From the IMG/VR virus record IMGVR_UViG_3300013947_000058, positions 1-48,966 of that record: a DNA stretch of 48,966 nt; one strand, 5' to 3'. The translations under genes were made by a program, and so were the position numbers. Below the pieces are notes generated by a model. That model was not told where the DNA came from. It saw only the letters and a program-made list of their open reading frames with translations, and searched no databases. Source of the DNA: a virus. Below, in pieces: positions 653 through 47,520 of the stretch (position 1 is its first letter; every line of letters begins with the position of its first letter).

Positions 653-771
653 ACCTATGTCCTCCTTTAATGTAATAATTTAGTAGCTTACGCCACCAAC
701 CGGATTATACCGGTTTCGTCTTAATTTTCAAAGACTCATCAGGGCAGCTTATAATTTTAATTTACGATTTT

Positions 772-14449: not shown

Positions 14450-15234
14450 TAGGAAAATACAAAAATTTTGAACTTTTCCAAATAAATTTTAACCTTAGAA
14501 TCCAGTTGGTCAATCCATCTTTGCGGTATAGCATCATAACCAAATCTTGCCCCTGCAATACTACCGGTAATAGCAGCTATCGTGTCTGCATCACCACCAT
14601 CATTTACTGCACCAATTATGGCCTTTTCAAATGATGGTTTACTTGCCCAATATAATGAATTATTGAATGTATCTTTGATATATCCAGAAGGCTCCAGAAT
14701 TGATTTTACTTTATAGGTATATAAATTATTATATAATATATTCTGAATCAATCTGGTGTACTCCAGAATTATCTGGGAACATTCTGAATTATTATGAGTT
14801 AATTTACTTTGTGCCACATTCAAATCAGGTCTATTTATTAAAGCGCATGGCATAGCTCTCATCAAGCTACCATTACCAAGAGCTGTATTATCTCTTTTAA
14901 TAAAATGACCTGTTGACATTGCATAGATTATTCCTTTTTGACATTGACCACCTATATCTTTTGGCCCCATTCGATACCACTCAATAAAATTACCCATGCA
15001 ATGCTTTTCAAATAACTTAATATTATTCATCAAAGCATCCATTACACAGATAGTCATTTGAGTATCATCCGTTACCTTACCAGCTTCAAGATTTAACCAA
15101 CCACCACCAATAATATCGGTTACCTTACCATATTGCTTTTTGATTTGTTTATGATTCATAAACTCAGTAGTTGCACCCATTGCATCACCGATAGCAAATC
15201 CATATATTGCACCTGCAATCTTATTCTTTATCAT
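14437..15234 (-). CDS. ADP-ribosylglycohydrolase (DraG/ARH family)
   Basis: GFAIGDAMGATTEF, VTDDTQMT and NDGGDADTIAAITGSIAGA are hallmark ARH metal-binding motifs. Start uncertain (ATGs between 15234 and 15279). Overlaps the end of the preceding small ORF. Confidence 0.85.
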   Translation of the reverse strand: MIKNKIAGAIYGFAIGDAMGATTEFMNHKQIKKQYGKVTDIIGGGWLNLEAGKVTDDTQMTICVMDALMNNIKLFEKHCMGNFIEWYRMGPKDIGGQCQKGIIYAMSTGHFIKRDNTALGNGSLMRAMPCALINRPDLNVAQSKLTHNNSECSQIILEYTRLIQNILYNNLYTYKVKSILEPSGYIKDTFNNSLYWASKPSFEKAIIGAVNDGGDADTIAAITGSIAGARFGYDAIPQRWIDQLDSKVKIYLEKFKIFVFSYLQI

Positions 15235-15451
15235 ACTCAACATCATACTCAACACACTCACCTCCATCAAGGACTTCATCGGGCTTTACTTCATATTTGA
15301 CACATTTAGATGTGTTGCAAGGCATTCCTTTATCTTTGAAACGATTTCGACAATCCTTGCAAATCAGATTATCATTAGTTACCAAATTAAAGCTTAACTT
15401 ATCTTTTTGAAACTTCTCATCAATAGTACTTAAATTTTTATTTGTTGCCAT
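15221..15451 (-). CDS. Small Cys-rich (zinc-binding type) protein
   Basis: AAAGGAGG RBS before ATG 15451. CKDCRNRF...C...C...C pattern. First gene behind promoter P4. Confidence 0.6.
   Translation of the reverse strand: MATNKNLSTIDEKFQKDKLSFNLVTNDNLICKDCRNRFKDKGMPCNTSKCVKYEVKPDEVLDGGECVEYDVEYDKE
15230..15253. repeat. Perfect 12-bp tandem duplication (atcatactcaac x2)
   Basis: In frame in both overlapping ORFs. Gives VEYDVEYD in the small ORF and LSMMLSM in the ARH 5' extension. Confidence 0.9.
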
Positions 15452-15480
15452 AATTAGCACCTCCTTTTACTTCTATAGAT

Positions 15481-24722: not shown

Positions 24723-24957
24723 TTAGTTTCTTAGCGTGTGTTTTGCTATTCTTAACATACTTTCTAACTTTGAACGTTCTATATTTATTTTAACACGTTT
24801 AGCAAGTAGCTTATTAAGTTCCTCATTAGTTCCATATAACTTACAATAAGTTATTTTGTTTTGTATATCAATATATCTTTTATTCAGCTATTCAGCCGCT
24901 CTATATATTCAGCCGCTCTATACGAATTTCAATTTCTTTTGTAATAGCATTTTTCAT
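24723..24957 (-). pseudogene. Small coiled-coil ORF interrupted by a 25-nt tandem-duplication insert
   Basis: ATG 24957 with GGAGG RBS encodes MKNAITKEIEIRIERLN, then stops. Deleting 24882-24906 fuses it in frame to KRYIDIQNK...RIAKHTLRN, giving 69 aa in total. Confidence 0.5.
24882..24923. repeat. 17-bp tandem duplication plus 8-bp partial third copy (attcagccgctctatat)
   Basis: Plus strand reads ATTCAGCt ATTCAGCCGCTCTATAT ATTCAGCCGCTCTATAc. Each full unit contains CTCTATA. Confidence 0.9.
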
Positions 24958-25131: not shown

Positions 25132-25213
25132 CCAGATAATCCAGAATAAATCCAATTTATTTTATATAGATTTATATTGAATATTAAATAAAGTTAACCA
25201 GAAGTCATTCTGG
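25132..25213. repeat. Intergenic AT-rich element E1 bounded by CCAGAAT/ATTCTGG half-sites
   Basis: CCAGATAATCCAGAAT...(AT-rich core)...CCAGAAGTCATTCTGG. The core matches E3 in the opposite orientation (ttaactttatttaata). Confidence 0.7.
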
Positions 25214-26405: not shown

Positions 26406-26446
26406 TTGATTTCCTCCTTTGATTTTTAACATATCATAACATATCA

Positions 26447-26553
26447 TCAGAATTGTCCAGAATGACCTCAGATTAATTTTTACTTATAAGATATATATTT
26501 TCTTATCTTAATAATTAAAATTAAACCTGAGACAATCTGGATAACTTCTGAAT
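26447..26553. repeat. Intergenic AT-rich element E2 bounded by CAGAAT/TTCTGA half-sites
   Basis: TCAGAATTGTCCAGAATGA...cttataagtaaaaattaatct-type core...ATCTGGATAACTTCTGAAT. The core matches E4 in the opposite orientation. Confidence 0.7.
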
Positions 26554-29120: not shown

Positions 29121-29265
29121 TTTAATTTTCTCCTTTTCGTATTTTGATTTCGTATTTTGATTTTTGATTGATTTTCCTAAACTTAGGACTTTTATATGAT
29201 TGAGGTGTTCCTCATAATCATTTAATATTCAGTTTGGAAGATATTTCCTCCTTAACTGTAATTAT

Positions 29266-31434: not shown

Positions 31435-31685
31435 TTGTTTTTAACCACTCTTTCATATCATAATCATACCAATCAAGAAAAACTCCTTCACCTTTAAGCA
31501 TGATAGATTGAACTTTCTTAGCAATTTTCTCGCCGATAGACTTATCAATTCCCTTCCATACAACAAAATGCTTTTTCTTAATTTGAACCCTTACTATATA
31601 CCGATGGTCTCTATTGGTCTCTATCAATATTTAAGTATTTAACACCCGTTGTACTTCTTGAATTTGGAGTTGTTCCTTTAATCAT
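31424..31685 (-). pseudogene. AP2-like DNA-binding domain ORF interrupted by a 10-bp tandem duplication
   Basis: ATG 31685 encodes MIKGTTPNSRSTTGVKYLNIDRDQ then stops. Removing one copy of atagagacca joins it in frame to HRYIVRVQIKKKHFVVWKG... (track ORF 31424..31627), giving 83 aa in total. Confidence 0.55.
31605..31624. repeat. Perfect 10-bp tandem duplication (tggtctctat x2)
   Basis: Each unit contains CTCTAT. Confidence 0.9.
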
Positions 31686-32216: not shown

Positions 32217-32297
32217 CCAGATTAATCAGAATTAACTTTATTTAATAATTATATAAATATATAGATTATATATTAAAATTTATTCTGATTAATCTGG
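32217..32297. repeat. Intergenic AT-rich element E3 with a perfect 16-bp terminal inverted repeat
   Basis: CCAGATTAATCAGAAT (32217-32232) and ATTCTGATTAATCTGG (32282-32297) flank a 49-bp AT-rich core. Confidence 0.8.
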
Positions 32298-32319: not shown

Positions 32320-32336
32320 GGCCGCATTAAGCGGCC
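32320..32336 (-). terminator. GC hairpin overlapping the stop codon of the AAA+ gene (possible terminator)
   Basis: GGCCGC attaa GCGGCC. The downstream U-tract is weak (tgatggtttatt). Confidence 0.4.
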
Positions 32337-33418
32337 ATCTGAATTTTTCTTAATGCGATATGATACTTGGTACTTCCATTAGGATTAAATGTATTGATTG
32401 TATCTTTGTCTAAACCTTTAACAATGCTAATCTTCATTGCCATCTCTAAGTTCATACCTTTTGCTTCAAGTTTGGTAATCATTGTTATGCATCTATAGGA
32501 GAATGTAGCTCTAATTCCTTTTGATTCAGCTTCTTTTCTCATTTGATGAATAAATTCAACCAATTCTGAATTATTATGAGTAAGTGCCATTTCAATCTTC
32601 AAACAATAATCAAACTCAATGATTGCAAATCTATCAAGTGTTGCTTGGTCCAAAACCATGCGTCCTGTATACATATCATCTGCACCACTTCCTACTGTAT
32701 TACCAGCAGCTACAAAATGCACATGGTCAAAATCAACTCGACCATTAGGAAATTCAAAGTAACCATTAGCAATTGCTGCATTAAGAAGAACCAGAACTTC
32801 AGGAATTGAAGCATCCATTTCATCAAGAAAGAAAATGCATTCATTTTCATCTGTACAAGCTTTGTAGAATTCTGTTTCGTGGAAGTCACCACCTGCATCA
32901 ATGAATCCTGTAAGTTTATATTCTTGTTGGATTGAATTACTGAAGTAAAAATTCCACCCAAGCTCTTTTGCAATCTGCTCAACTGTGTGATTTTTACCAG
33001 AACCAGCAGGACCTGCAAGATAAACTGGAATGTTACATTCCAAACAACACTTAATTTCATCGTATCTGTCATGATGAACTTCATCATTTTCTTCAACTCG
33101 AGGAATAATAGTTGGCATTTTAATTCCTTTTCCTTCAAGTTTATTTTTAATTTTTGATGACGTGGTACCTACTTGCTTAGCTGTTGACATTTTCTTAATG
33201 CCCTTGGTTTCGTATTCACGTTCAACCTTTTCTACCTGATAGTTTGCATCGAAGTAAATTCTGCAACCATCAATCACTGTTGTGTTGTTGTATGCTTTAC
33301 GCACATAAGTGAACTCTTTACTTGAACCTTCAAACTTAAGTGTAACAACTACACAGCCATGTTTCATTGCTTTTTCAATTTTGATAACTTCGAAATTTAC
33401 GTTTGTCATGTTTGTCAT
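32327..33418 (-). CDS. AAA+ ATPase (MoxR / AAA_5-like)
   Basis: Walker A VYLAGPAGSGKNHT. Walker B IFFLDEMDASIPEVLVLLNAAI. Driven by P7. Confidence 0.7.
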   Translation of the reverse strand: MTNMTNVNFEVIKIEKAMKHGCVVVTLKFEGSSKEFTYVRKAYNNTTVIDGCRIYFDANYQVEKVEREYETKGIKKMSTAKQVGTTSSKIKNKLEGKGIKMPTIIPRVEENDEVHHDRYDEIKCCLECNIPVYLAGPAGSGKNHTVEQIAKELGWNFYFSNSIQQEYKLTGFIDAGGDFHETEFYKACTDENECIFFLDEMDASIPEVLVLLNAAIANGYFEFPNGRVDFDHVHFVAAGNTVGSGADDMYTGRMVLDQATLDRFAIIEFDYCLKIEMALTHNNSELVEFIHQMRKEAESKGIRATFSYRCITMITKLEAKGMNLEMAMKISIVKGLDKDTINTFNPNGSTKYHIALRKIQMAA

Positions 33419-33486: not shown

Positions 33487-33515
33487 ATAATACCATATAA
33501 GCTGGAGTTTGTACA
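33487..33515 (-). promoter_or_regulatory. Promoter P7 (TGTACA -35, 17 nt, TGGTATTAT)
   Basis: Minus strand reads tttttgaaaaattttcgtaaaaaggGTGTACAaactccagcttataTGGTATTATaatatc. Confidence 0.75.
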
Positions 33516-33529
33516 CCCTTTTTACGAAA

Positions 33530-33565
33530 ATTTTTCAAAAACTTCAAGGGAGGTTTTAGCCTCCC
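33530..33565 (-). terminator. Rho-independent terminator
   Basis: Minus strand reads GGGAGGctaaaaCCTCCCttgaagtttttg, directly after the stop at 33573. Confidence 0.6.
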
Positions 33566-33572
33566 AATCAGT

Positions 33573-34385
33573 TTAGATATTTTCAAGGTCATCAATTGTT
33601 TTAATTGTGTTTACGTCCTTCTTAATGAAGTTAGGTAGTAAATATTCACCTTTGAATATCTCACGCATTTCATTTGAAGTAGCTGGACTACCATAATTAC
33701 TTACAAAACTCTTTGTGACGTTTGGATAAACCTCAATGAATCTAAAGAACAAACGACGAAGCATTGATGGATGAACCAATGGGAATGCAAGTTTTGAAAC
33801 ATTCATCTTTTCATTTGCCGATTTGATTCTCACTTTAATAACGAATTGTTTTGAAGGATAACCAGCAGTTGTACCAAGCACAATGTTCAAGTTGCATCTG
33901 TAACATTGAGCCTCAAGCTTCTTGACAATCTGCATTGCTTTTATACTTTCTTCAATTATTTGCTCTGCACTTACACCACCATTGTAGTCGATTGATTTGT
34001 TTAATGTAATGACTTTCTGCTTAACAGGTGTCATTTTCTTTGTGACCATGTTATTTGGTACACCTTGCAAATACAATGGAACAATTGCTTGATAACCTGC
34101 AATGCTCAATGTGTTTTTAGGTTTCATTGTTGGCTCTGTTTTGCTCTCAATTACCTTGAGTTTTTGAACCAATTTAGTTGCCATATCTGACCAACCGTTC
34201 TTAAACAACTCAACTGCTTCACTGAAGTCTCTTGTTTTTGTGAAATAGTAGTCACCATCAACTGATGAATGTTTAGCCCAACAGAAAGCTTCATTGAATG
34301 GTGTATGAATTAGATACTCATAAAACTCATGTAAGCTATCATACTCAATAACTTCTGTTTTGTTTGTGATTTGATTTGATTTCAT
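33573..34385 (-). CDS. Hypothetical protein (partner gene of the AAA+ ATPase)
   Basis: AGAGGAGG RBS. 270 aa, no motif recognised. Driven by P8. Confidence 0.5.
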   Translation of the reverse strand: MKSNQITNKTEVIEYDSLHEFYEYLIHTPFNEAFCWAKHSSVDGDYYFTKTRDFSEAVELFKNGWSDMATKLVQKLKVIESKTEPTMKPKNTLSIAGYQAIVPLYLQGVPNNMVTKKMTPVKQKVITLNKSIDYNGGVSAEQIIEESIKAMQIVKKLEAQCYRCNLNIVLGTTAGYPSKQFVIKVRIKSANEKMNVSKLAFPLVHPSMLRRLFFRFIEVYPNVTKSFVSNYGSPATSNEMREIFKGEYLLPNFIKKDVNTIKTIDDLENI

Positions 34386-34436
34386 GTTGTTTTCCTCCTC
34401 TAAGGATTTATGTGTTATACCTTAACCACTGTAATT

Positions 34437-34465
34437 ATTATATCACAAGGATTTTGATTTGTACA
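34437..34465 (-). promoter_or_regulatory. Promoter P8 (TGTACA -35, 17 nt, TGATATAAT)
   Basis: Minus strand reads catagggtaTGTACAaatcaaaatccttgTGATATAATaatt. Confidence 0.75.
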
Positions 34466-34500
34466 TACCCTATGTAAAATTATTTTAGTTAGTTAAAAAT

Positions 34501-34623
34501 GAAATAGACTTTATAGAAATAGACTTTATAATAGATAAGGGTCTATATAGGGTCTTCTATATAGGGTCTATAGATTTTAGACTTTAAGCTCTATAAGCTC
34601 TATAAGCTCTATAGACCCTATCA
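34501..34623. repeat. Iteron-like repeat array (candidate origin or operator region)
   Basis: gaaatagactttata x2 (34501-34530). gggtct(tc)tata x3. aagctctat x3 (34586-34612). Perfect 13-bp inverted repeat atagggtctatag (34561-34573) / ctatagaccctat (34609-34621). Adjacent CACGTG. Confidence 0.8.
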
Positions 34624-34645
34624 CGTGCACACGTAAAAAAAATAA

Positions 34646-34792
34646 TTATTTATAATATTTATATTGCTCTTTGCGTATTAGTTGTTTTTGCTCTTCCCAT
34701 TTAGCTTTCTCTTTCTGATATTTATCACACTCAGCGTGACACCCTATATGCCTTGTTGGAGGCACGCAGTCTTTACAACACTTAATTTGCAT
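34646..34792 (-). CDS. Small Cys-rich protein (48 aa)
   Basis: Not in the track. ATG 34792 with AGGAGG RBS. Encodes MQIKCCKDCVPPTRHIGCHAECDKYQKEKAKWEEQKQLIRKEQYKYYK. Confidence 0.5.
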   Translation of the reverse strand: MQIKCCKDCVPPTRHIGCHAECDKYQKEKAKWEEQKQLIRKEQYKYYK

Positions 34793-34793
34793 A

Positions 34794-35477
34794 TTATTTT
34801 TCCTCCTGAAGTTTGTCTTGGTCACCTACAAAACCAAACATAGCTATTCCTGCACTATCTGCAGCGTCATTGTTATACATGTATTTCTGCCCATCTCTGA
34901 CAAATGTTCCTTTAGTCTTTCTACCCTCTATTGGTATAAGAATATTATTTTCCCAGCCCTGTTTTAGTAGCCATTTGACTGTAGGCCATTTCTCTTCTGG
35001 AACTCCAAACTTATTTGCCATAGGTTTACTTGTGCCTATTACTTGAGCTTTCCAGCATCTTGTATCTACACTATAAACTGGGACACAATACTCATGGCAT
35101 TTGTCTACTATGATACTGTTTAAAGCACCAATAGACTTTATGTAGTCGATATTGAGAAAACCCTGAGAACGAAGCCTAATTCTTTCTATGATGCAAATGA
35201 CTTCTCTTGCTTTTGGACAAACTGCTTTAAGGAGACCATTAAGCGTATTTGCTAATGCCCTCCTTTTATCGCTATTTGTTTTGTATGTACTTAATTGTAA
35301 GCTTCGTACTTTTACAAGCTTTCCATCTGCTGCAATACTAATACCAGTATTATTATATGATTGGTCTATGCCTACTATTACTTTCTGATATTTATAGTGC
35401 TGCTTACATTGCTTGTCTTCGCAATCTAAACAATCCAGATAGACAGCTGTACCTAGTAAAGGGCAAGGCCTACCCAT
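34794..35477 (-). CDS. RuvC-like Holliday junction resolvase
   Basis: Catalytic-acid pattern VIVGIDQSYNNTGISI ... ICIIERI ... NNDAADSAGIA. N-terminal Cys cluster. Confidence 0.55.
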   Translation of the reverse strand: MGRPCPLLGTAVYLDCLDCEDKQCKQHYKYQKVIVGIDQSYNNTGISIAADGKLVKVRSLQLSTYKTNSDKRRALANTLNGLLKAVCPKAREVICIIERIRLRSQGFLNIDYIKSIGALNSIIVDKCHEYCVPVYSVDTRCWKAQVIGTSKPMANKFGVPEEKWPTVKWLLKQGWENNILIPIEGRKTKGTFVRDGQKYMYNNDAADSAGIAMFGFVGDQDKLQEEK

Positions 35478-35518
35478 ATCAATTCCTCCTTTTATTTTGA
35501 TATTTATTCCAAGGGGCT

Positions 35519-35611
35519 CCAGAATTATCCAGAATGAATTTTAATTATTAGGATATGAATTTATATACCTTATAAGTAAAAATTAATCTGAATAATCCTG
35601 AAACCTTCTGG
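35519..35611. repeat. Intergenic AT-rich element E4 bounded by CCAGAAT/TTCTGG half-sites
   Basis: CCAGAATTATCCAGAATGA...ccttataagtaaaaattaatctga...CCTTCTGG. The plus-strand core equals the minus-strand core of E2. Confidence 0.7.
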
Positions 35612-35644
35612 AAATATCTTAATTATTATAAATAATTTAATATA

Positions 35645-36175
35645 TTAGTCTTTTATTTTAATTCTTTCCAAAATCAAATCTTTTGGCAAAATGTTATAAC
35701 ATAGATATGCCGACTGAAATACACCGCCGCCTTGCTTTCTTATGCCATCTTCATAAAAGAAATATGGGACTCTTGGATATAGATAGAGCAAACCAATGTT
35801 CTTATCTTCAAAATATGAGAATCTTTTGTTATTATCAAACAGACCTAATGTATTAATCAGCATAGCAAATGGAATATCTAATTCAAATAATTTTTCGAAG
35901 ACCTCTGTCTTTTTTGAATATGGAGGATTGCTAATAATATAGTCCACCTTTGTTCTTATTTTTCTTAATTTAAAAAAATCTTTACCTTCAGAAATATGGC
36001 TATGCAAAACATTAAAACCCTGCTCTCTAAGAACTTTTACAAAATTAGAATCCTCTGTATCAAATGGACACAATACTGTGCTACCTGGCTTTAAAAATTT
36101 AATGATAGGATATATAGCACATTTTGGCGTATAGTATTCGTCTTGTTTATTTAGCTTTAAAGTATGACTTGACAT
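35645..36175 (-). CDS. N6-adenine DNA methyltransferase
   Basis: DEYYTP near the N-terminus and catalytic DYIISNPPYSKK. Confidence 0.75.
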   Translation of the reverse strand: MSSHTLKLNKQDEYYTPKCAIYPIIKFLKPGSTVLCPFDTEDSNFVKVLREQGFNVLHSHISEGKDFFKLRKIRTKVDYIISNPPYSKKTEVFEKLFELDIPFAMLINTLGLFDNNKRFSYFEDKNIGLLYLYPRVPYFFYEDGIRKQGGGVFQSAYLCYNILPKDLILERIKIKD

Positions 36176-37042
36176 TTAGTTTAACCTTACCTTTCCTTTT
36201 CCTATGCCCCAGCAAGCTTCACGCATAAAACATTCTTTGCAACGTTTACATGTAGGACTACTTGCATCTTTTGGTCTCTTAACCATCTTATGCTCTTCAA
36301 ATACACGGTCATAATGGAACATAATAGAATCTGCTCTACCAGCAAATGGCTCAATTTTTGTTGGGTCATAATCATACACTTCAATCTTAAAATCTTGCGT
36401 GTTCTTATCTTCTGAAAGTACAAAACCTTTTGTATAGTCTTTACCGTTCCATGCTCCATCTGCTTTTGCTTGTTTAATACACAAATGCATATACCATTGA
36501 CATTGCTTCCAAGCCGAAGGATGATGAGTCATTCTCTGAAACTGATATGTATTTACAGACTTAATCTCACCAATCATTCTTCCTTCAAAGAACTCAGGAA
36601 TTAAACAATCAATATCTGGCGTATAGCTTAGCATATACTCATCACAAAATCTTGTGTAGTCCATATTTTTTGCTTTGCCATAACCAGCTCTAATTAGAAG
36701 TCTTTGCCATTTTTCATGAATTGCATTGCCTTGCTCAAAAATACGCATAAGACCAACAGGTGTCTGCTGACCTTGAAGCTGCTTATAAATTAAACTAAGA
36801 ACCTGAGCTCTTAAACAGAAGTCCTTTTCACCAACCAACATTGCTGATGCATGAAGACCAACACGCTCTTGAGATTCAAGACCTCTTGTCATAACTTGCT
36901 TTACAAATTTTGTTTCCTCTTCGATATTCTTATCAAGATAGAATGTTGCATTTAAAATTTTCTCAAGTGCAGCAGCATCGGTACTTTGAATTTTCGTTCT
37001 ATTGCCTTGAGCTTCTTTTTTAATGTTGTTAATAAGACCCAT
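36176..37042 (-). CDS. Cas4/RecB-like PD-(D/E)XK exonuclease with Fe-S cysteine cluster
   Basis: YTPDIDCL...GEIKS (D...E-x-K), QCQWY (QxxxY), an N-terminal Cys plus C-terminal CKRCKECFMREAC. Confidence 0.6.
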   Translation of the reverse strand: MGLINNIKKEAQGNRTKIQSTDAAALEKILNATFYLDKNIEEETKFVKQVMTRGLESQERVGLHASAMLVGEKDFCLRAQVLSLIYKQLQGQQTPVGLMRIFEQGNAIHEKWQRLLIRAGYGKAKNMDYTRFCDEYMLSYTPDIDCLIPEFFEGRMIGEIKSVNTYQFQRMTHHPSAWKQCQWYMHLCIKQAKADGAWNGKDYTKGFVLSEDKNTQDFKIEVYDYDPTKIEPFAGRADSIMFHYDRVFEEHKMVKRPKDASSPTCKRCKECFMREACWGIGKGKVRLN

Positions 37043-37239: not shown

Positions 37240-38036
37240 CTCGCCTCCTTTGGTCTGTTTAAAATATGATGAACGATATACATATAAACAATACCTTTTT
37301 CTTCTATATCACTGAGATACCAATCAGCAAATTCTTTAGGATTCTCTTTAAAGTTTTTCGTTATTGTATCTTCAATTCTTATCATTGGAAACTGTGACAT
37401 ATCATGCTTGCCAAATAATCTAAAAAGCTCATTATCTGAATGTGTATATGCATAATTCTCATTGATTATTGCTTCACACAATCTCTTTAAAAACCTTTTT
37501 ACTTTGTTATCCGGTTTAAGCTTTTCTTTATTCAGCTTTTCAAGTAGTATCTCTGGAGTTGGCCACTCATACCAAGTTATTCTTCCGGCTTCTCTCATAC
37601 TCTGATTATGTTCTATGCCGTATGTTTGAGCAATTCTGTTCATTAGCTCTCCTGCTTTTCTGTAACCAACATATACAATAAGCTTTGCAAGTACATAAGC
37701 TTCAAACTCATCTTGATGCATTATATGAATTCCACTTCCACGATTCGCTGGGATTTTAAACTTTCCACCAAGATGCTTAACTCTCATATTCACATCTAAG
37801 CAATCTGTTTTTAAATCAAAATACTCAAACCAAACATTATAAAAATCATCTGCTGAACAACTCATTATAAGTCTGTATTTATTAAAGTTAAACCTATCTC
37901 GCTGTTGCTCAATCTTAAGTGCTTTATCTCTAAATGGAATCACATATTTTCCTTCTTTTAGCTTTATCCATCTTGGAACTTGTCCCGAATTATAAATTTG
38001 GTCAAGATTGAAATAAGGCACATCAATTACAAACAT
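37236..38036 (-). CDS. OGG1/AlkA-like DNA glycosylase fold protein (catalytic motif not recognised)
   Basis: N-terminus FNLDQIYNSGQVPRW, YFDLKTDC, GIHIMHQDEFEAYVLAKLI and WYEWPTPEILLEKL parallel Ogg-family landmarks. No clear HhH-GPD Lys/Asp seen. Confidence 0.35.
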   Translation of the reverse strand: MFVIDVPYFNLDQIYNSGQVPRWIKLKEGKYVIPFRDKALKIEQQRDRFNFNKYRLIMSCSADDFYNVWFEYFDLKTDCLDVNMRVKHLGGKFKIPANRGSGIHIMHQDEFEAYVLAKLIVYVGYRKAGELMNRIAQTYGIEHNQSMREAGRITWYEWPTPEILLEKLNKEKLKPDNKVKRFLKRLCEAIINENYAYTHSDNELFRLFGKHDMSQFPMIRIEDTITKNFKENPKEFADWYLSDIEEKGIVYMYIVHHILNRPKEAR

Positions 38037-38488
38037 ACATCACCACTCCTATTTACAACTCGTATAATTCCTGCATTTTTAAGCATTCTTGCACATATAT
38101 TGCAAGGAACAGGATTCTTATCTTCATGAAAGTCAACAACTTTCTCTTCCCACATTGCAGATTTTTCTTCATTTAGACCATATTCTTCACAAGCCAAATA
38201 TACCGTCGCACCAATCAATCTCTCACGACCTGTAGCAATCAAAGCATTTTGCTCTGCATGAACACTATCACAATTTTCGTAGCATGAATATCTTTCAGCA
38301 TTTGCTCTTTTGCATGTGCCTCTATCACAACAATTTTCTTCGCCTCTCGGACTGCCATTGTAACCGGTAGCAATAATAATATCATCTTTAACAATAACAC
38401 AACCATAATGACGTTTGAGGCATGTACTTCTTTTCGAAACTGCAAGAGCAATACCAAGATAATATTCATCTTTTGTTATTCTTCTCAT
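38027..38488 (-). CDS. dCMP deaminase
   Basis: VHAEQNALI and PCNICARML zinc-binding motifs. AGAGGA RBS before ATG 38488. Confidence 0.85.
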   Translation of the reverse strand: MRRITKDEYYLGIALAVSKRSTCLKRHYGCVIVKDDIIIATGYNGSPRGEENCCDRGTCKRANAERYSCYENCDSVHAEQNALIATGRERLIGATVYLACEEYGLNEEKSAMWEEKVVDFHEDKNPVPCNICARMLKNAGIIRVVNRSGDVCL

Positions 38489-38499
38489 AGTTTTCCTCT

Positions 38500-38709
38500 T
38501 CACTTTCTTTTGCTCTTTGTTATCATTGATTCTTCCCATTTTTCAATATTGCAGTCTTGATAGCCTAATCCTGTTAGTGCAAGTGCAAGCTGCTCAGGCG
38601 CAATTATAATATCAATATCTTTTTTAAAATTATTATCTGTAACAGATATAATAATTTGATTTGTATTATTAATATTACGAGAAATAGTTATTTTTGCATT
38701 AGTTTTCAT
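38500..38709 (-). CDS. Hypothetical protein
   Basis: ATG 38709 (MKTNAKITISR...). 69 aa. Confidence 0.45.
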   Translation of the reverse strand: MKTNAKITISRNINNTNQIIISVTDNNFKKDIDIIIAPEQLALALTGLGYQDCNIEKWEESMITKSKRK

Positions 38710-40098: not shown

Positions 40099-40104
40099 CC
40101 CTAA

Positions 40105-40128
40105 ATTTTAACTTTAATTTTAACTTTA
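40105..40128. repeat. Perfect 12-bp tandem repeat (attttaacttta x2)
   Basis: Overlaps the DnaE stop codon and lies just upstream of P9. Confidence 0.9.
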
Positions 40129-42828
40129 TTGATTTGATTTTGCATACAGTGTGCTATTGTATTTGGTCACACGATTAATATAAGTTCGTTTATTGAACTC
40201 CAATGCACCTTGCTCTTTCAAAATCTGAATAACTCTCGACGTAACAGTTCTTGATTTGCACCTATCATAAAAATCATCAAAGCTTATAAATACACCATGA
40301 GCTTTTCGTTCCTCTTCAATTGCTGTGGCTGCTTTTTCACCAATTCCTTTAATTGAACTTAATCCTTCTTGAATTACCATTTCACCCTCGACTTTTCGAA
40401 GTGTATAATTAGCTGAATAATTAACATGCGGCAAAAACAATATTGCATTATCACGAACAGCATTTTCTTTGAATTTAGCCATCTTAGCTTCATCACCACT
40501 GTACTTCATCTTTACATACCAAAACTCTGTAGGATAATAGATTTTGTAGTACATTTCCTCGACCGAGATTAAACTATATCCTGTAGCATGCCCTTTATTA
40601 AATGCATAGTTAAAGAATTTATCAAAAATTTCAAATGCCTGTTCTTTAGTCATACCATGTTTCTTTGCACCAGCTTCAAACTTCTTTACAAAGTTGTCAT
40701 AATTTTCTTCAAAGTTTCTGATTGCCTTTTCAGTACCACCACGTTGCATCTTCAAAATCTTATCAGCTTCAGGCCATTCCAATCCACCAATGTTAACTGC
40801 AATAGCTTGTACTTGTTCTTGATATACTACACAACCATAAGTTTTCTCAAGATATTTTGAGTATGGCAAACTCGTATCAATATGAGCTTGGTCAACCTTA
40901 TTGGCTGCATATACTTCCGGCATCTTTAAGCTCAGTGGACCAGGCCTGTTCATAGCCGATGCAGCAATCACATCTTCAAAACAATCACATTGCATTACTC
41001 TCAGCATTTCTTGAACTGATTTCTTTTCAAACTGGAATACACCATCACAATTGCCTTCACCAAAAGCTTTCATGACTTGCTCATCATTTACCCAATCTTC
41101 ATCAAATTCATCATGACCTGTAAGTTGTCTAAGTTCACCAATACTTGACATTGTGGTAAGACCAAGAATATCAAACTTAATTACTTTGATTTTTTCCATA
41201 TCGTTCAAATCATAATTTGTGAAATGCTTACCTGTTTTTGAATCAATACGAACAGCTGTATAGTCCAGAATATTTCCACCAGTAATTGCAACACCAGCAG
41301 CATGAGTTCCGATATATCTGATTTTATTATACAGCTTGCAGAAATGCTTAATGATATTATCATATTGAGCATTCCACATTTTTGCTTCAGCTGATTTAGA
41401 TACTTTGTCAAGGTCAAGTAAACCTTCATTTATATTGCTGTTTACAAAGTTTTTAATCTGCTTTATTTCGTCTTTGTTTCCCTCAAGACCACAAACTTTT
41501 GCAAGGTCATTTATAAGGTTATCAACACGATATAAACCATAAGAACAGATTTGAGCTGCATTATTTGGATATCTATCCAGCAAGTGCTGAATTACTTCTG
41601 CTCGACGTGACGTTTCAAAATCAAGGTCAATATCAGGCATTTTCTTCTTATCAATTCTTAAGAATCGACTAAAATCAAGGTCAAATAAAATCGGGTCAAC
41701 ATCAGTAATATGCAATGCATAGTTAACCAAACAATTACAACCAGAACCACGACCAGGACCAACTTGAATCCCATGCTCTTTTGCCCATGTTGCATACTCA
41801 GCAACCATCAAAAAGTAATCTTCAAAGCCATGATACTTAATGACTTTAAGCTCTTCCTTAATTCTTGCTGCATACTTCTTATTCCACTTGCCTCGTTTTT
41901 TAAGCCCATCCTTTATTTTCTCTTTCAATAAATCAAGCGAATCTCTCTCAGGGTCAAACTGAGGAAGCTTAAGTTCAAGCTCATCAAGAATATCACCATC
42001 AACTTTGTCTTCAATTTCCTGCAGGTTTCTAACCATTTCTTTTGCCAGAGCTTTTACTTTAACATTACCAAAATCACCTTTATGCATTTTATAAAATCGC
42101 TGCATAATTTCCTTTTCAGTTGGCATATAACGTTCTTTATACGTTGCTTCAATATCATCGAAATTATGCTTAGCAACTTCATGCATTTTCATATAAGTAT
42201 CAAAATCTTCTTTTGCGCCTCTATGAGAATCAGAGGTAAGTATAAGCTTAATACCTAACTTCTTAGCTAATTTAATTGACTCAACATTTACCTTTTCTTG
42301 AAGCCCTGGCTCAGTAATTGAATACGGCTGAATTTCAATATAAAAATCATCGCCAAAAATATCAACCATCTTTCTAAGATACTTTTCAGCTTGGTCAATC
42401 TTATCTGATTTAATACACTGAGCTAAGTAACCTGCAACACAAGCACTCGTACAAATCAATCCTTCATGATATTCCTCAAGTAGTTCAAATGTCCAAATTG
42501 GATTGTAGTACTTGATTTTCTCACCTTCATACTGAAGTGTATTTAGATTCGTATATCCTTGCTTTGTCTTGGCAAACAAACATAAGTGGTAGCCTCTTGT
42601 TTGAGGCTTATACTTTGGTAAGAAATATCCTTCGCATCCCATGATAGGCTTAATACCTTCCTCTTTACATGCATAGAAATGTCTTACCAATCCATTTGTG
42701 TTACCATGATTAGACGTACCAAGAGACGTATATCCAAGCTGTTTTGCTAAAGCAGCAAGCTCTTCCGGTTTACCAAAACCATCAAACGTACTACACTCAT
42801 CGTGTCTGTGTAAATCTACCATTTGCAA
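40126..42828 (-). CDS. dnaE: DNA polymerase III alpha subunit (DnaE-type, N-terminal PHP domain)
   Basis: PHP start VDLHRHDECSTFDG. Palm/fingers GPGRGSGCNCLVNYALHITDVDP. PDIDLDFETSRR. 900 aa. Confidence 0.95.
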   Translation of the reverse strand: MQMVDLHRHDECSTFDGFGKPEELAALAKQLGYTSLGTSNHGNTNGLVRHFYACKEEGIKPIMGCEGYFLPKYKPQTRGYHLCLFAKTKQGYTNLNTLQYEGEKIKYYNPIWTFELLEEYHEGLICTSACVAGYLAQCIKSDKIDQAEKYLRKMVDIFGDDFYIEIQPYSITEPGLQEKVNVESIKLAKKLGIKLILTSDSHRGAKEDFDTYMKMHEVAKHNFDDIEATYKERYMPTEKEIMQRFYKMHKGDFGNVKVKALAKEMVRNLQEIEDKVDGDILDELELKLPQFDPERDSLDLLKEKIKDGLKKRGKWNKKYAARIKEELKVIKYHGFEDYFLMVAEYATWAKEHGIQVGPGRGSGCNCLVNYALHITDVDPILFDLDFSRFLRIDKKKMPDIDLDFETSRRAEVIQHLLDRYPNNAAQICSYGLYRVDNLINDLAKVCGLEGNKDEIKQIKNFVNSNINEGLLDLDKVSKSAEAKMWNAQYDNIIKHFCKLYNKIRYIGTHAAGVAITGGNILDYTAVRIDSKTGKHFTNYDLNDMEKIKVIKFDILGLTTMSSIGELRQLTGHDEFDEDWVNDEQVMKAFGEGNCDGVFQFEKKSVQEMLRVMQCDCFEDVIAASAMNRPGPLSLKMPEVYAANKVDQAHIDTSLPYSKYLEKTYGCVVYQEQVQAIAVNIGGLEWPEADKILKMQRGGTEKAIRNFEENYDNFVKKFEAGAKKHGMTKEQAFEIFDKFFNYAFNKGHATGYSLISVEEMYYKIYYPTEFWYVKMKYSGDEAKMAKFKENAVRDNAILFLPHVNYSANYTLRKVEGEMVIQEGLSSIKGIGEKAATAIEEERKAHGVFISFDDFYDRCKSRTVTSRVIQILKEQGALEFNKRTYINRVTKYNSTLYAKSNQ

Positions 42829-43567
42829 TTCTCCTTTTCTTACATATCATCAATATTTGACGATTGGCTTGAGTAGGAGACAAGCAAGCAATTATTGCTC
42901 TTATATAACTTTCAGGGAATGCGCCTCTGAGCTTTGAAGCAATCATACTCAAATTAGCATTAGTCTCTAAAAGCTTATTATATTCTCGTTCTTCAAGACT
43001 CCAACCAATCTCTTTATTGATTTTGAACTCCTTATTTATTATACCATAAATCTCAGAATTTGTAAACTCTTTTTTATGGTCAGTTGGCCATACTCTATCT
43101 TCATACATTCCCTCGTATGGAGGAGTAGGAGTCGTAAATAGTAGCAGTCCTTCTGGCACCAACCAACTTGCAATTCGCTCAAACATAGTAGCTGCAAAAT
43201 CTTTGTCAATGTGCTCAATCACTTCCATGAATACCACACAATCATAAACAATCTTCGCATGCATTCTTATGTTGAACTCTTTTGATGTGATATCGAAAAC
43301 GGTAATCGTCTTATCAGATTCGTATCGTTTATCACCATCAACTCTCATGAACTTAATATCATCACGCTTAAAATTTTTCTTAACCATATTCTCTAAATCA
43401 CTTGAGCCAGCACCAAGCTCTAATACTCTAGAGTCTGCAGGCAGCTGAGCAATTTGCCCAGCCACCATAAGAATTCTATTAAAGTTTGAGAAGCTCCAGT
43501 GTAAGTTGTAATCACATTCAGAGAATTTGTCAAATCCCATTTCTCTATTTGCATTCTTACAATTCAC
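42797..43567 (-). CDS. Class I SAM-dependent methyltransferase (substrate unknown)
   Basis: Motif I VLELGAGSSDL, post-I and motif-II-like VFMEVIEHI. Start uncertain: GTG 43567 with GGAGG 9 nt upstream, or ATG 43540 or 43597. Confidence 0.65.
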   Translation of the reverse strand: MNCKNANREMGFDKFSECDYNLHWSFSNFNRILMVAGQIAQLPADSRVLELGAGSSDLENMVKKNFKRDDIKFMRVDGDKRYESDKTITVFDITSKEFNIRMHAKIVYDCVVFMEVIEHIDKDFAATMFERIASWLVPEGLLLFTTPTPPYEGMYEDRVWPTDHKKEFTNSEIYGIINKEFKINKEIGWSLEEREYNKLLETNANLSMIASKLRGAFPESYIRAIIACLSPTQANRQILMICKKRRIANGRFTQTR

Positions 43568-43994
43568 CTTGCTGTACCTCCTTAAGCTTTTCAACAATCA
43601 GCTCAACACACTCATCAATGCTTTTGTTTGTAGTATCAAGCTCAAGTGTTTTTTCAGCTTTATAATACCTATGAATATTATCACAATAAAGTTTCTGAGC
43701 TTTATCATAATCATAAGGACAAGTCTCATTATGAAATATAAGACGTTCTTTAGCAGTTTCTTTTTCCACTTTACAATATACAACCACAAAATCATCAAAC
43801 TTCATGATTTTTCGTGCTTGATGAATAAGTTCCTGATTGCCATGCTTTGTTTCACGACCAAAAATTTTATCAAAAGTCATATAACCAATAGGACCTCTAT
43901 CAATCACAACATGCTTAAAGTTTGTTGCTTTCAGAAACTCCCATTCCAAAGTTGTTTTACCGGCCTTATCAAGCCCTTCGAAAATCACCCACAT
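43557..43994 (-). CDS. dNMP (thymidylate-type) kinase
   Basis: P-loop VIFEGLDKAGKTT at the N-terminus. 145 aa. Adjacent to ThyX. Confidence 0.65.
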   Translation of the reverse strand: MWVIFEGLDKAGKTTLEWEFLKATNFKHVVIDRGPIGYMTFDKIFGRETKHGNQELIHQARKIMKFDDFVVVYCKVEKETAKERLIFHNETCPYDYDKAQKLYCDNIHRYYKAEKTLELDTTNKSIDECVELIVEKLKEVQQGEL

Positions 43995-43997
43995 ATA

Positions 43998-44909
43998 TTA
44001 CAATATCCAACTTTCTATCATTTCAGATTCGCCAGGAAGTAAAAGCTCAGGCTCTTCAAAATATATGCGCTTTAATTCTTGATACCAAGCAGATTTCGTA
44101 AAATCAAACTTACAATTTTCAGTTGCATGAGTTACATGCTCATTGGCATCTTCAAATCTCTTAAAAGAGTTGCCAAATACATCATCACATGTAAAGCACT
44201 TCTTAGCCGCTGCACCAAAACAATCACATCTCTCAAGATTTTTAGCATAAACCAACTTATCAAGCTCGTCCATTTCATTATCAAGAGCAATTGCTTTTTT
44301 AAGTTCTTTAAGCAAAAGTCTGAATGCATAGTTAATTTCATCAGCTGTATTATTTTCCAACCTCTGACCACATACATTCACAAGCTGAGGAAGTGTGAAA
44401 GAGCAAGAAGCATCGCATGTCTGCCCATGCATTAATAAATAACGTGCATCTTGATATGGAATAACTGTATTGTCTTTTCCATCATCGTTTCCTTTGGTCA
44501 TATCATCATACAGTTTTTGAGATTCCTCAATAAGCTTTACAGCTCTCTCATAAAACTCAGATTGAACAATATTCAAAGGAAGAATAACATTATGCTCGAC
44601 ATGCTGAGGCATCTGAGATTCAACTTGAAACAACCAACCACGATGACGAGTAAGCTGCGCAAGATTTACTCTCGAAATGTTCTTGAAAACGCATTGAATA
44701 AGTACAGTTTCCTGAGGAGTAGGATTCAATCTCTTACCAACCGAACCTGCAATAAACTCCTTCACAATAGGAAGCTCCGGATTGTACTCAATATTCTGAA
44801 GCTGAATCCATGTCTGTTTAAGCATATCCCACATCACTTTTGCAGGGTGCTTTGTGTAGTTAATAATTTCTACACTAATTCCTTTGTAACCATTCTGAAT
44901 GCCATTCAT
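43998..44909 (-). CDS. thyX: Flavin-dependent thymidylate synthase ThyX-like
   Basis: RHR-x7-S signature present (RHRGWLFQVES). Size is about 300 aa. Confidence 0.7.
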   Translation of the reverse strand: MNGIQNGYKGISVEIINYTKHPAKVMWDMLKQTWIQLQNIEYNPELPIVKEFIAGSVGKRLNPTPQETVLIQCVFKNISRVNLAQLTRHRGWLFQVESQMPQHVEHNVILPLNIVQSEFYERAVKLIEESQKLYDDMTKGNDDGKDNTVIPYQDARYLLMHGQTCDASCSFTLPQLVNVCGQRLENNTADEINYAFRLLLKELKKAIALDNEMDELDKLVYAKNLERCDCFGAAAKKCFTCDDVFGNSFKRFEDANEHVTHATENCKFDFTKSAWYQELKRIYFEEPELLLPGESEMIESWIL

Positions 44910-45407
44910 TTATTTGGCCTCCTTCTCAATTAGTTTATTAATTTCATTTGTATATTTATCAAGACGTTCTTTAGACTCAAAGTAAATCTCACCAATACAA
45001 TCTGAAGAATTACCAAGAGCTTTTTCATTCAAACACCATTGATATACGCTGTAGGCATCTGCCAACTTAAGAATATTATACACTATCGGTTCAGGTTTGT
45101 ACACATCTCCAAGATAGTTGCTCCAATGTTCTTCATAATAGTCTTGCTCAATTTTACCAAGTATCTGCTGCATCTCAGGATAATTTGCTTTGACATCATG
45201 AGGAATATCGGACGTACGACTTTCACATGTATCGTGCAATGCTGCAAGAATTAGAACTTGTCGTTCTTGCTCATGCGTAAGATTAAGCTGAGTCATAATC
45301 TTAAGACAAAATAGAGAAACAAAGCATGTATGCTCTGCAACACTCTCATCTTGAAGTCTGCTACGGTGATTGTACCTGATAATTTTCTTAAGCGGGTATT
45401 CGCTCAT
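44910..45407 (-). CDS. HD-domain 5'-deoxynucleotidase (YfbR-like)
   Basis: ESVAEHTCFVSL ... ALHDTCESRTSDIPHDVK (H...HD...D). Confidence 0.7.
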   Translation of the reverse strand: MSEYPLKKIIRYNHRSRLQDESVAEHTCFVSLFCLKIMTQLNLTHEQERQVLILAALHDTCESRTSDIPHDVKANYPEMQQILGKIEQDYYEEHWSNYLGDVYKPEPIVYNILKLADAYSVYQWCLNEKALGNSSDCIGEIYFESKERLDKYTNEINKLIEKEAK

Positions 45408-45417
45408 TATAGATTCT

Positions 45418-45894
45418 TTACTCAACAATTCCAGCATAAGCAAGCCCCTCATTCTTTTTAATTAATTCAGGAAGCTTGTCAAGGTCTTCAAACTTTGTAA
45501 CTACAATATCTCCAGATTGAGCTAACATCAAATTAAATTGACCATTAGGACCAAGTGTTTCACAATAATATACAATAATAATATGCTTATCAGTTGACTC
45601 CAGCATATAATTAATACCATTTGCAAAACCTGCTTCCCAGATTGTGCCCATATCTTTACCATCAGTAATTGCAAAAAGAATATCGCAAGTTTCAATATTG
45701 TATGTATTATCTCTGAAAACTTTCTGGCGTGTTTCTTCATCAGAGATAGGAGAACATACACAATTATCTTTTGGACTCCACACATTGAATCCAAGCTCTC
45801 TCAAACGTCCTTTGACACGTTCCTCACGTTCCGCTTGGTCAGGATTAAACCAAGGGCTTGCAAAATACACTTTCATATTTTTAATATCGTTCAT
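45418..45894 (-). CDS. Nucleoside 2-deoxyribosyltransferase-like protein
   Basis: KVYFASPWFNPDQ ... DILFAITDGKDMGTIWEAGFANG matches the family pattern (YLAGPFF ... D.GT.fE.G). Confidence 0.65.
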   Translation of the reverse strand: MNDIKNMKVYFASPWFNPDQAEREERVKGRLRELGFNVWSPKDNCVCSPISDEETRQKVFRDNTYNIETCDILFAITDGKDMGTIWEAGFANGINYMLESTDKHIIIVYYCETLGPNGQFNLMLAQSGDIVVTKFEDLDKLPELIKKNEGLAYAGIVE

Positions 45895-46211
45895 TCTTTT
45901 TCAACTCCTTGCATATTTTCCTTGTAATCTTGTATCGCTTTTTCAATACAATTTTCAACACTTTGTTTTTCTAATAAGCACTCTCTTGCAAAGAAACTGA
46001 CTTTGTTTTTATCATGCCAATCACCGGCTATAAATAAACTCGCATTTGCTGTTTCAATAGGTGTAGTAAAAACGTGTGCGTTGATATGAATTTCATAACA
46101 AGCATTTGCACTGACTACATAACGATATAAGCCTTTCGTAATCTCTTTCCAATTATTAAGGTCTTTCATTTGTTCTAATTCAGTATCTTTAATATCGTTG
46201 ATATCATTCAT
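45891..46211 (-). CDS. Hypothetical protein
   Basis: AAGGAGAAATCG RBS region. 106 aa. Confidence 0.5.
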   Translation of the reverse strand: MNDINDIKDTELEQMKDLNNWKEITKGLYRYVVSANACYEIHINAHVFTTPIETANASLFIAGDWHDKNKVSFFARECLLEKQSVENCIEKAIQDYKENMQGVEKE

Positions 46212-46234
46212 AACGATTTCTCCTTTTCTAAAAT

Positions 46235-46264
46235 GTAGGGAGGGAGCTTAACCCCTCCCACTAC
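46235..46264 (-). terminator. GC-rich hairpin terminator after the dUTPase-like gene
   Basis: Minus strand reads GGGAGGGgttaagctCCCTCCCtacatttt. Confidence 0.5.
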
Positions 46265-46277
46265 GTGAATACTTTCA

Positions 46278-46694
46278 TTATAAAGTTTCAATACGGTCAG
46301 ATACAACACCAAGCTTTTGCTGAATCGCGTTAGCCAGGTCATTGCCATCAAATCCGGAAAACATTGCAATATTCATAAGTACCACAAAACAATCAGCTAA
46401 TTCCTCAAGCTTTGCATTTTTATCGTACTTGTTATTGCGATGTGATTTCCACCTTTTGTCAGCGTCCAATACCTCACCAATCTCTGACATAAGCTGCTGA
46501 ATATGATATGATGCTAAACCAACATCATCTGCTGGAACAGTAACCGTATGCTCATCTTTGTATCTGTCATAAACACCTTTATGAATGAGCTTATCTTGAG
46601 TCATGAGTTGAGTATTGAACAATTGTTGTAAAGTTATTGCATTAGTCTGCTGTGAAGTTATTGCATTAATCATCTTTTTTACTGCATTAGTCAT
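46278..46694 (-). CDS. All-alpha NTP pyrophosphohydrolase (dimeric dUTPase / MazG-like)
   Basis: SEIGEVLDADKRWK ... LEELADCFVVLMNIA (E..E ... E..D pairs). ATG 46694 overlaps the SSB stop. Confidence 0.6.
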   Translation of the reverse strand: MTNAVKKMINAITSQQTNAITLQQLFNTQLMTQDKLIHKGVYDRYKDEHTVTVPADDVGLASYHIQQLMSEIGEVLDADKRWKSHRNNKYDKNAKLEELADCFVVLMNIAMFSGFDGNDLANAIQQKLGVVSDRIETL

Positions 46695-47520
46695 CTTCCC
46701 AGTCATCCTCATCTTCGCCCCAATCTTCTTGAGCTGTATCCCATTCCTCAAGCTGATTGATATAGTATTTAGCAGGTTTCTTTGGAGCTACTTTGATTTC
46801 ACGTTCTTTGCAGAGGTTGTACAACTCTTTGGCAGTCATTTCAGAGTAATCAACTACATCGTCGTCATCCTCTTCGCCCCAATCTTCATCATCATAATCA
46901 TCCTCATCTTCATCATCTTCCGGCTCAGATTTACGAGTATTTTTCTTACCAATAGACTTCTGAGCACGTTTCTTAGGTGCTTCATCCTCATCTTCATCAT
47001 CCTCAGCTACATCACAAGGGAATGCTTTATCAAGCATCTTAAGGATAGACTTTTCAGAATAAGCTTTTGCTTTCTCATTTCTGAATTTAACTTTGTCCAT
47101 GGGAACAACAGAAAACGTCTTATTCTGTTTCTTACCGGAGACACTAATCACATAGTCACGGTCAGTGATTGTACCATAATTTTCATACATTGCCATCAAT
47201 GCAGGAATTGGACTGCAGTTATTTACAGGGAACATAAACAACTGAACTTCTTTGGTCTCATAATTCCATACAGACCAAATATACTGAGAACGAGTACGAA
47301 GACTGTCATCATCGCAGTAAGGGCAGTTCTTTCCAAAATGCTCCTGACAAGGAACATTAATTCCGGCTTCAAAACTATCATGAAATGTGACTTCCATTCC
47401 GTCATCCATATCAGCCAAGAAACGAATTCTAATTTTCTGACCTTCTCTAAAATAGATGAACTTACCTTTATTCTGACCAGACTTCTTTACGTCTTGCTTA
47501 ATTTTATCGACTAAACCCAT
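46687..47520 (-). CDS. ssDNA-binding protein (T4 gp32-like zinc OB-fold) with SAP-like module and acidic tail
   Basis: IRIRFLADMDDG...HDSF...CQEHFGKNCPYC parallels the gp32 His/Cys3 site. TAKELYNLCKEREIKVAPKKPAKYYINQL. C-terminus EDWGEDEDDWEDD. Confidence 0.55.
   Translation of the reverse strand: MGLVDKIKQDVKKSGQNKGKFIYFREGQKIRIRFLADMDDGMEVTFHDSFEAGINVPCQEHFGKNCPYCDDDSLRTRSQYIWSVWNYETKEVQLFMFPVNNCSPIPALMAMYENYGTITDRDYVISVSGKKQNKTFSVVPMDKVKFRNEKAKAYSEKSILKMLDKAFPCDVAEDDEDEDEAPKKRAQKSIGKKNTRKSEPEDDEDEDDYDDEDWGEEDDDDVVDYSEMTAKELYNLCKEREIKVAPKKPAKYYINQLEEWDTAQEDWGEDEDDWEDD

Follow-up and report, generated by a model that had tools for sequence, protein, structure and literature searches.

The dense repeat array at 34501-34634, which lies upstream of promoter P8, may well be a lineage-specific, duplication-expanded version of an older boundary palindrome, an element that is terminator-like in a sister clade. 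This reading is tentative and comes from comparing the same locus in related phages. The window, i.e., the whole stretch of 48,966 bp analysed here, is an IMG/VR record that represents the complete virus genome of a gut phage; the 99-bp terminal repeat at its ends is probably the overlap of a circular assembly.

The array itself is statistically striking and far beyond chance. No other 133-bp stretch of the genome is so self-repetitive: words of at least 8 bases that are repeated, directly or inverted, inside the stretch cover 111 of the 133 positions, against a genome mean of 11 per 133 bp, a 99.9th percentile of 93 and a maximum of 62 among 2000 shuffles. Nine of the genome's 32 TCTATA/TATAGA sites are found here (P about 2e-16). 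All the repeat elements that the initial annotation had listed for 34501-34630 are present where it placed them (Table 1), and one proved longer than described: the inverted repeat, given as 13 bp, is perfect over 14 nt (ATAGGGTCTATAGA, 34561-34574 vs. 34608-34621) and reaches 19 nt at 89%. Its left arm is the third of three arm copies. GGGTCT units start at 34539, 34550 and 34564 and include the perfect 14-bp tandem pair. The adjoining element CACGTGCACACGT (34622-34634), also confirmed, holds the only CACGTG of the genome. Altogether there are three unit types, each in 2-3 copies, and a loose TCTATA core is all they share.

Genomic context of the array

The minus strand carries all genes of the window. 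In the order of transcription, primase, SSB and nucleotide-metabolism genes lead to a DnaE-type polymerase (40126-42828), followed by RecA/UvsX, dCMP deaminase, a Cas4-like nuclease and the RuvC-like resolvase (Table 1); then come the 48-aa Cys-rich ORF, a 260-nt gap containing the array, the DUF7192 gene and a MoxR/AAA_5 ATPase gene and, further downstream, RNase H, terS/terL and the structural genes. Among cultured phages, the closest relatives, with 52-59% identity in DnaE, are gut Clostridia phages: Agathobaculum AB434P2/P3 and Clostridium CS266P1-4. Positions 33500-36500 matched no GenBank phage in a megablast search, and an exact search of IMG/VR for the 14-nt arm returned single chance matches only, with no record containing two copies. 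Rfam searched over the whole window yielded nothing at the gathering threshold; relaxing E to 1 added, for the array, nothing but a meaningless miRNA match.

The array had been placed between the RuvC-like/Cys-rich genes and P8. This position is right, with the correction that these genes and P8 all lie on the minus strand. Because P8 occupies 34465-34437 on that strand, the array is located about 70 to 200 bp upstream of the inferred start of transcription. The -10 region of P8, TGnTATAAT, ends at 34437, and the genome has about 11 cassettes of this type, P8 among them. Their GGGT(AT)GTACA -35 element is unusual and belongs to this phage family; that a family of gut Clostridia phages uses so unusual and conserved a promoter cassette is of interest in itself. 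The DUF7192 gene and the MoxR-type ATPase gene each have a separate cassette. An AlphaFold2 model of the DUF7192 protein has a mixed alpha/beta fold (mean pLDDT 68), and the top-ranking fold matches, though weak, come from VWA domains of NorD in complex with NorQ, a MoxR-type ATPase. The protein is probably a divergent VWA-like partner of the adjacent AAA_5 ATPase, i.e., one half of a MoxR-VWA pair as far as the model goes; such fold matches fit the MoxR neighbor and not an initiator.

On the other side of the array, the Cys-rich protein has a C-terminus about 20 aa shorter than in relatives. The end of its ORF (34635-34666) is specific to the window, the alignments of relatives restarting only at 34685/34686, and the 40-bp window from 34634 is in the 99.5th percentile of low duplex stability. 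Within the same ORF, at 34741-34749 on the minus strand, the window encodes H-I (CATATAGGG) where relatives encode Y-P (TACCCAGGA). The change gives a third copy of the 9-mer ATATAGGGT and may be meaningless; the 9-mer was set aside as evidence, since about 0.7 such flank matches are expected by chance in our own post hoc calculation. The 15-bp duplication creates a promoter-like site on the plus strand (34505-34532; TAGACT, 16 nt, TATAAT; 10 of 12 matches) that faces the Cys-rich and RuvC-like genes in antisense orientation. Sites of this kind are no more frequent in the region than chance predicts.

Table 1. Features of the array and its surroundings, with positions in the window.
Feature	Position	Strand	Details
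RuvC-like resolvase gene	34794..35477	-	PHROG 159, E 6e-9; upstream of Cys-rich ORF
Small Cys-rich ORF	34646..34792	-	48 aa from ATG 34792; final gene of upstream operon
A8 run and AT-rich stretch	34635..34666		Over stop and last codons of Cys-rich ORF
Alternating purine-pyrimidine tract	34622..34635		CACGTGCACACGTA; alternation read from sequence; folds as 6-bp mini-hairpin
Inverted repeat, right arm	34608..34621		TCTATAGACCCTAT
Perfect 9-bp triple	34585..34613		AAGCTCTAT x3 (34586, 34595, 34604); within centre of split palindrome
Palindrome arm, three copies	34536..34574		TAAGGGTCTAT, ATAGGGTCTTCTAT, ATAGGGTCTATAGA; contains 14-bp tandem pair 34542-34569
Perfect 15-bp tandem pair	34501-34515 and 34516-34530		GAAATAGACTTTATA x2
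Conserved promoter-adjacent block	34467..34493	-	AACTAACTAAAATAATTTTACATAGGG; aligned and kept in sister clade
Promoter P8	34437..34465	-	-35 TGTACA (34465-34460), 17-nt spacer, extended -10 TGATATAAT; sigma-70-like, kept in relatives
DUF7192 gene	33573..34385	-	270 aa; Pfam DUF7192, E 1.6e-34; first gene driven by P8
MoxR/NorQ-type AAA ATPase (AAA_5) gene	32327-33418	-

The locus in relatives and a proposed older palindrome core

With the DUF7192 protein as query, 11 viral and 30 metagenomic loci were retrieved. All close relatives share P8, its leader and the block AACTAACTAAAATATTTTTACA(C/T)AGGG; promoter and leader are kept in thirty-odd related loci. What varies is the DNA lying between this block and the upstream gene's stop codon. 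In blastn comparisons with four complete collinear relatives (80-88% identity), the alignment stops at 34494/34530 and restarts at 34685/34686. In loci of type A, a 13-19-nt alternating purine-pyrimidine tract, of a different sequence in the relatives, is followed by palindromes or repeats with a TCTATA core; this type comprises the window, the L004/L005/L011/L131/L132 group, L146, L135, L138 and L140, and L009, with a tract followed by (ACTAAT)6, was placed with it on the tree. Type B loci have ATATTTCTTTCTTTAT in 2-4 copies. The others contain one or two copies of TTTACTATATATTTTC, long TA-rich runs, or no array at all (L013, L153, L154, L142, L149 and the cultured phage CS266P3). Copy number varies even between near-identical loci: ATATTTCTTTCTTTAT occurs four times in L006, three times in L137 and twice in L151. 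A tree of the flanking gene with 28 rows requires at least 10 changes of array type, and its outgroups have no array. The array is thus not retained in collinear relatives: they carry unrelated repeats or nothing while P8 is kept. Because of this, and of the changes of type on the tree, the window's array appears to be young and the family manages without it.

Gene content differs here as well. In L144 (1-170), a ribbon-helix-helix-like ORF lies directly upstream of DUF7192, and L143 (315-737) and L160 (1-2116) have an additional small gene between promoter and DUF7192. This makes the locus a hotspot for gene exchange.

Beneath this variation an older core can be traced. The boundary element would originally have lain between P8 and the operon that runs from RecA through RuvC to the Cys-rich ORF, and would have had two parts, the 13-19-nt purine-pyrimidine tract and, after it, a perfect palindrome. 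With its extra copies collapsed, the array can be aligned with the L004 clade over the tract and GATAG(G/A)GTCTATAGA, and the right arm (34608-34621) is homologous to AGAGTCTATAGACTCT of that clade. Once the material between the arms is removed, the palindrome of the window is 20 bp long, ATAGGGTCTA followed by TAGACCCTAT; that of the L004 sister clade, AGAGTCTA followed by TAGACTCT, differs from it by a symmetric G:C to A:T change. Such a change fits a hairpin or a protein site, or could stem from templated quasipalindrome correction. From the palindrome to the promoter, 60 of 60 nt are identical within the L004 clade, against 83-95% in the flanking genes. Because the loci are mosaic, this identity could partly come from recent recombination. 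Conservation of the core in the sister clade implies that the stretch is not plain junk DNA.

In the L004 clade the palindrome has the pattern of an intrinsic (Rho-independent) terminator, with a 6-bp stem, a 4-nt UAUA loop and a U/T-rich tail, and there it would most likely act as a small terminator or 3' hairpin, insulating one transcription unit from the other. Its location also suits a terminator or a 3' stabilizing hairpin, the array following immediately on the operon's final gene and preceding the next promoter, and hairpin terminators precede other promoter cassettes in the genome, e.g., upstream of P7. In the lineage of the window, replication slippage or template switching may then have copied the arm (14 bp, 2-3 copies), the centre of the palindrome (9 bp, 3 copies) and the flanking 15-mer (2 copies). 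These duplications would have split the palindrome, leaving the 14-19-bp inverted repeat and the iteron-like appearance. The minus-strand RNA of the expanded stretch is still predicted to fold into stable hairpins (-40.5 kcal/mol, z = -3.9), while the U-tail would have been lost. In contrast to an intrinsic terminator, the window copy has a loop of 23-33 nt, no U-tract after its hairpins and no G+C-containing stem-loop joined directly to one, and no terminator-like site was called in the array. Since a hairpin is missing at this position in many relatives, termination here can be dispensed with. The role of the array today is probably no more than that of a leaky structure for transcript ends or insulation.

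The expansion step resembles slippage VNTRs in non-coding spacers. The copies in the array are perfect (100% identical) and head-to-tail, their number differs between near-identical relatives, different units occupy the same locus, and tandem duplications are in excess throughout the window. Unlike such VNTRs, the array packs three units and an inverted repeat into 133 bp around an older palindrome. If expansion of a boundary palindrome is indeed what happened, it is a caution for genome scans: tandem duplication can quickly build an iteron-like array, and comparison with collinear relatives separates such duplication-built arrays from true origins.

The genome-wide excess is considerable. The window contains 18 perfect tandem duplications with a period of 8-40; sequences simulated with a first-order Markov model average 2.4 and never exceed 6, and counts in seven relatives range from 1 to 7. 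The 15-, 14- and 9-bp repeats of the array account for three of the 18. Outside the array, no fewer than six are insertions, the unit being present once in relatives, and 12 of the 18 fall within 24.9-34.6 kb (P 2e-5). Examples are found at 15230-15254, 24881-24922, 26427-26447, 29135-29163, 31605-31624, 33401-33418 and 40104-40128, and certain duplications interrupt ORFs. CTCTAT occurs in two of the 14 duplications outside the array (post hoc P 0.003), a suggestive link of the duplication burst to this word. The G+C content of the window is 34.6%, against 37.6-39.9% in the relatives (3-5 points lower across the seven, about 5 against most). The excess could reflect a lineage-specific slippage bias, or an assembly problem; about five times more duplications than in relatives, together with the lower G+C content, point to a lineage-specific bias of replication or repair. 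The duplication excess and the promoter cassette, both side results, are possibly worth more than the array itself.

Alternative readings of the array

The initial annotation took the array for a candidate replication origin or a multi-site operator. The origin half gives way, because GC skew does not switch at the array and collinear relatives do not have it; the operator half survives, with a modest likelihood. The array would then be an operator or enhancer at which a phage or host DNA-binding protein reads ATAGGGT and/or the palindrome TCTATAGA, an idea that is possible but unlikely. With similarly limited probability, a protein on the site abutting the -35 hexamer, together with the upstream copies, might tune P8 by cooperative binding or looping. 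The main support comes from ATAGGGT, a word rare elsewhere and enriched at the promoter: all five copies in the genome lie within 34467-34747, one of them (34467-34473) abutting the -35 hexamer of P8 and one (34741-34747) inside the Cys-rich ORF. This clustering speaks against the duplication reading and hints at protein recognition, but three of the copies derive from one duplicated arm and so represent fewer independent events. Likewise, the arm ATAGGGTCTATAGA matches the -35 region of P8, ATAGGGTATGTACA, at 11 of 14 positions, and the relative L140 has ATAGAGT at its promoter and the same word two or three times in its own array; yet local duplication predicts the same sharing of words between promoter and array, and such sharing is found in just two of 31 loci.

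The relatives can be read in either direction. Repeats or palindromes with a TCTATA core follow the purine-pyrimidine tract in the L004 group, L146, L135 and L138, and the palindrome, which could equally be the operator of a dimeric protein, is strictly conserved in the L004 clade. Against an operator, the sites are wholly missing in many relatives, and the perfect tandem copies look like young duplications. Nor does a reader emerge from the phage genes: among the eight genomes compared, no phage ORF co-occurs with or is specific to the type A array, the type of Cys-rich protein does not follow the array type, and the AP2-like ORF, a window-specific candidate for DNA binding, is interrupted. 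The position upstream of about -70 is beyond that usual for operators. The core spacing of 9-14 bp, said to place the sites on successive helical turns, was not borne out, the actual distances being 30, 14, 11, 23, 9 and 9 bp (Rayleigh R 0.53, p 0.14), with no significant phasing with the helix. If the operator reading were true, the array would be a handle for finding the protein that reads the promoter cassette.

Two further links from the array to other sites had been proposed and were both rejected as being at chance level. The copy of TCTATAGA at 15472 (P4) is real, but its connection to the array is not meaningful: this is one copy outside the array, against about 1.8 expected by our own calculation from base composition, and relatives have 0-2 copies per genome. 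TATAGAT, noted in E1 and E3, occurs 10 times in the genome, no more than composition predicts; neither TATAGAT nor TCTATATA is enriched.

Among known operators, the omega repressor of pSM19035 and ParR/parC of R1 provide the closest comparison, with heptad or iteron operators that double as centromeres. The array resembles them as a short array of direct and inverted repeats upstream of a promoter. In those systems uniform repeats adjoin one another directly, and the operon also encodes the ribbon-helix-helix protein that binds them. In the array, by contrast, the units are heterogeneous and 9-30 bp apart, with no evident cognate protein.

A related but rather improbable scenario makes the locus a functional, fast-evolving control region. 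The -35-like words (ATAGGGT-N-T-N-TA-N-A) and the TCTATAGA palindromes would recruit a factor that reads the GGGT(AT)GTACA -35 element, or would instead stall or start forks and in that way drive the burst of template-switch duplications in the window's lineage.

The array is very probably not where replication starts. As an iteron-type origin, it would bind an initiator at its repeats and melt the adjacent AT-rich DNA, which is how its varied direct and inverted repeats, set in a non-coding gap of a replication and recombination block (DnaE, RecA, Cas4-like nuclease, RuvC-like resolvase, RNase H) and flanked on both sides by AT-rich stretches, could be understood. In this respect it is like the iteron origins of lambda and of P1/F/RK2-type plasmids, which have clustered direct and inverted repeats beside AT-rich DNA (PMC5043065), and it lies in a phage of about 50 kb. 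In known iteron origins a single site is repeated in helical phase beside an AT-rich region, and a replicon-specific initiator binds it (PMC5043065). Most of these features are lacking in the array. No repeat unit exceeds three copies, and the units are unlike each other; the missing helical phase counts here too, as iterons are generally in phase (PMC5043065). None of the initiator or helicase-loader families (Rep, O, DnaA, DnaD-like) was recognized in the 47 ORFs scanned, and the gene downstream of the array is predicted to be VWA-like, not Rep-like. DUF7192 itself was considered as an initiator with the array as its iterons and discarded, given its weakly NorD-type VWA fold and the empty results of a PDB sequence search and NCBIfam. 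Lambda ori, moreover, sits inside lambda's initiator gene, unlike the array. DnaA boxes do not cluster (14 matches vs. 17.9 expected), and the array is replaced or missing in collinear relatives, complete genomes included.

Instead of the predicted inflection at the array, cumulative GC skew has no sign switch: it is negative throughout and only weaker at 32-36 kb, although skew is a weak test with all genes on one strand. The detrended curve does have a local maximum at 36184, 1.6 kb away, but this extreme is shallow and its range marginal (block-shuffle P 0.036). The flanks of the array rank 4th (100-bp windows) and 9th (40-bp windows) in low stability, at the 99th percentile; the least stable duplex is found in the cores of elements E1-E4, and the least stable genome segments are those at 32243, 35620, 14703, 26485 and 25157. 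Four AT-rich elements bounded by CCAGAAT/ATTCTGG (25132-25213, 26447-26553, 32217-32297 and 35519-35611), one of them with 33-nt arms of 85% complementarity, hold the genome's least stable duplex and are stronger candidates for unwinding elements than the array.

Slighter still is the chance that the palindrome extrudes as a cruciform and the purine-pyrimidine tract flips to Z-DNA under the negative supercoiling behind P8. Such structures could, with the same faint probability, become a substrate for the RuvC-like resolvase or a site of fork stalling, and such stalling would account for the accumulation of template-switch duplications here. A perfect 14-bp inverted repeat and a 13-14-nt purine-pyrimidine tract do lie beside a strong promoter and directly downstream of the RuvC-like gene, and the clustering of duplications around 24.9-34.6 kb is in keeping with the idea. 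Against this, the argument is purely structural, the cluster coincides with the least constrained part of the genome, rich in small ORFs, and relatives that have no palindrome are otherwise collinear. A packaging site was rejected, terS and terL lying at 22.3-24.4 kb, 10 kb away.

Other features of the genome

Two observations concern regions distant from the array. In the leader downstream of a promoter at about 800, positions 708-751 (minus strand) contain a hammerhead-like core, CUGAUGAG...stem...CGAAAC, which scores 19.1 bits with Rfam Hammerhead_3 (E 0.11 when 261 bp are searched), well short of the gathering score of 48.5. At 43557-46751 (minus strand) lie genes for a dATP triphosphohydrolase-like protein, a MazG-like NTP pyrophosphohydrolase, a nucleoside deoxyribosyltransferase, ThyX and a thymidylate-kinase-like protein, with which the dCMP deaminase gene (38027-38539) can be grouped; this set of nucleotide-pool genes raises the possibility of an altered base in the phage DNA.
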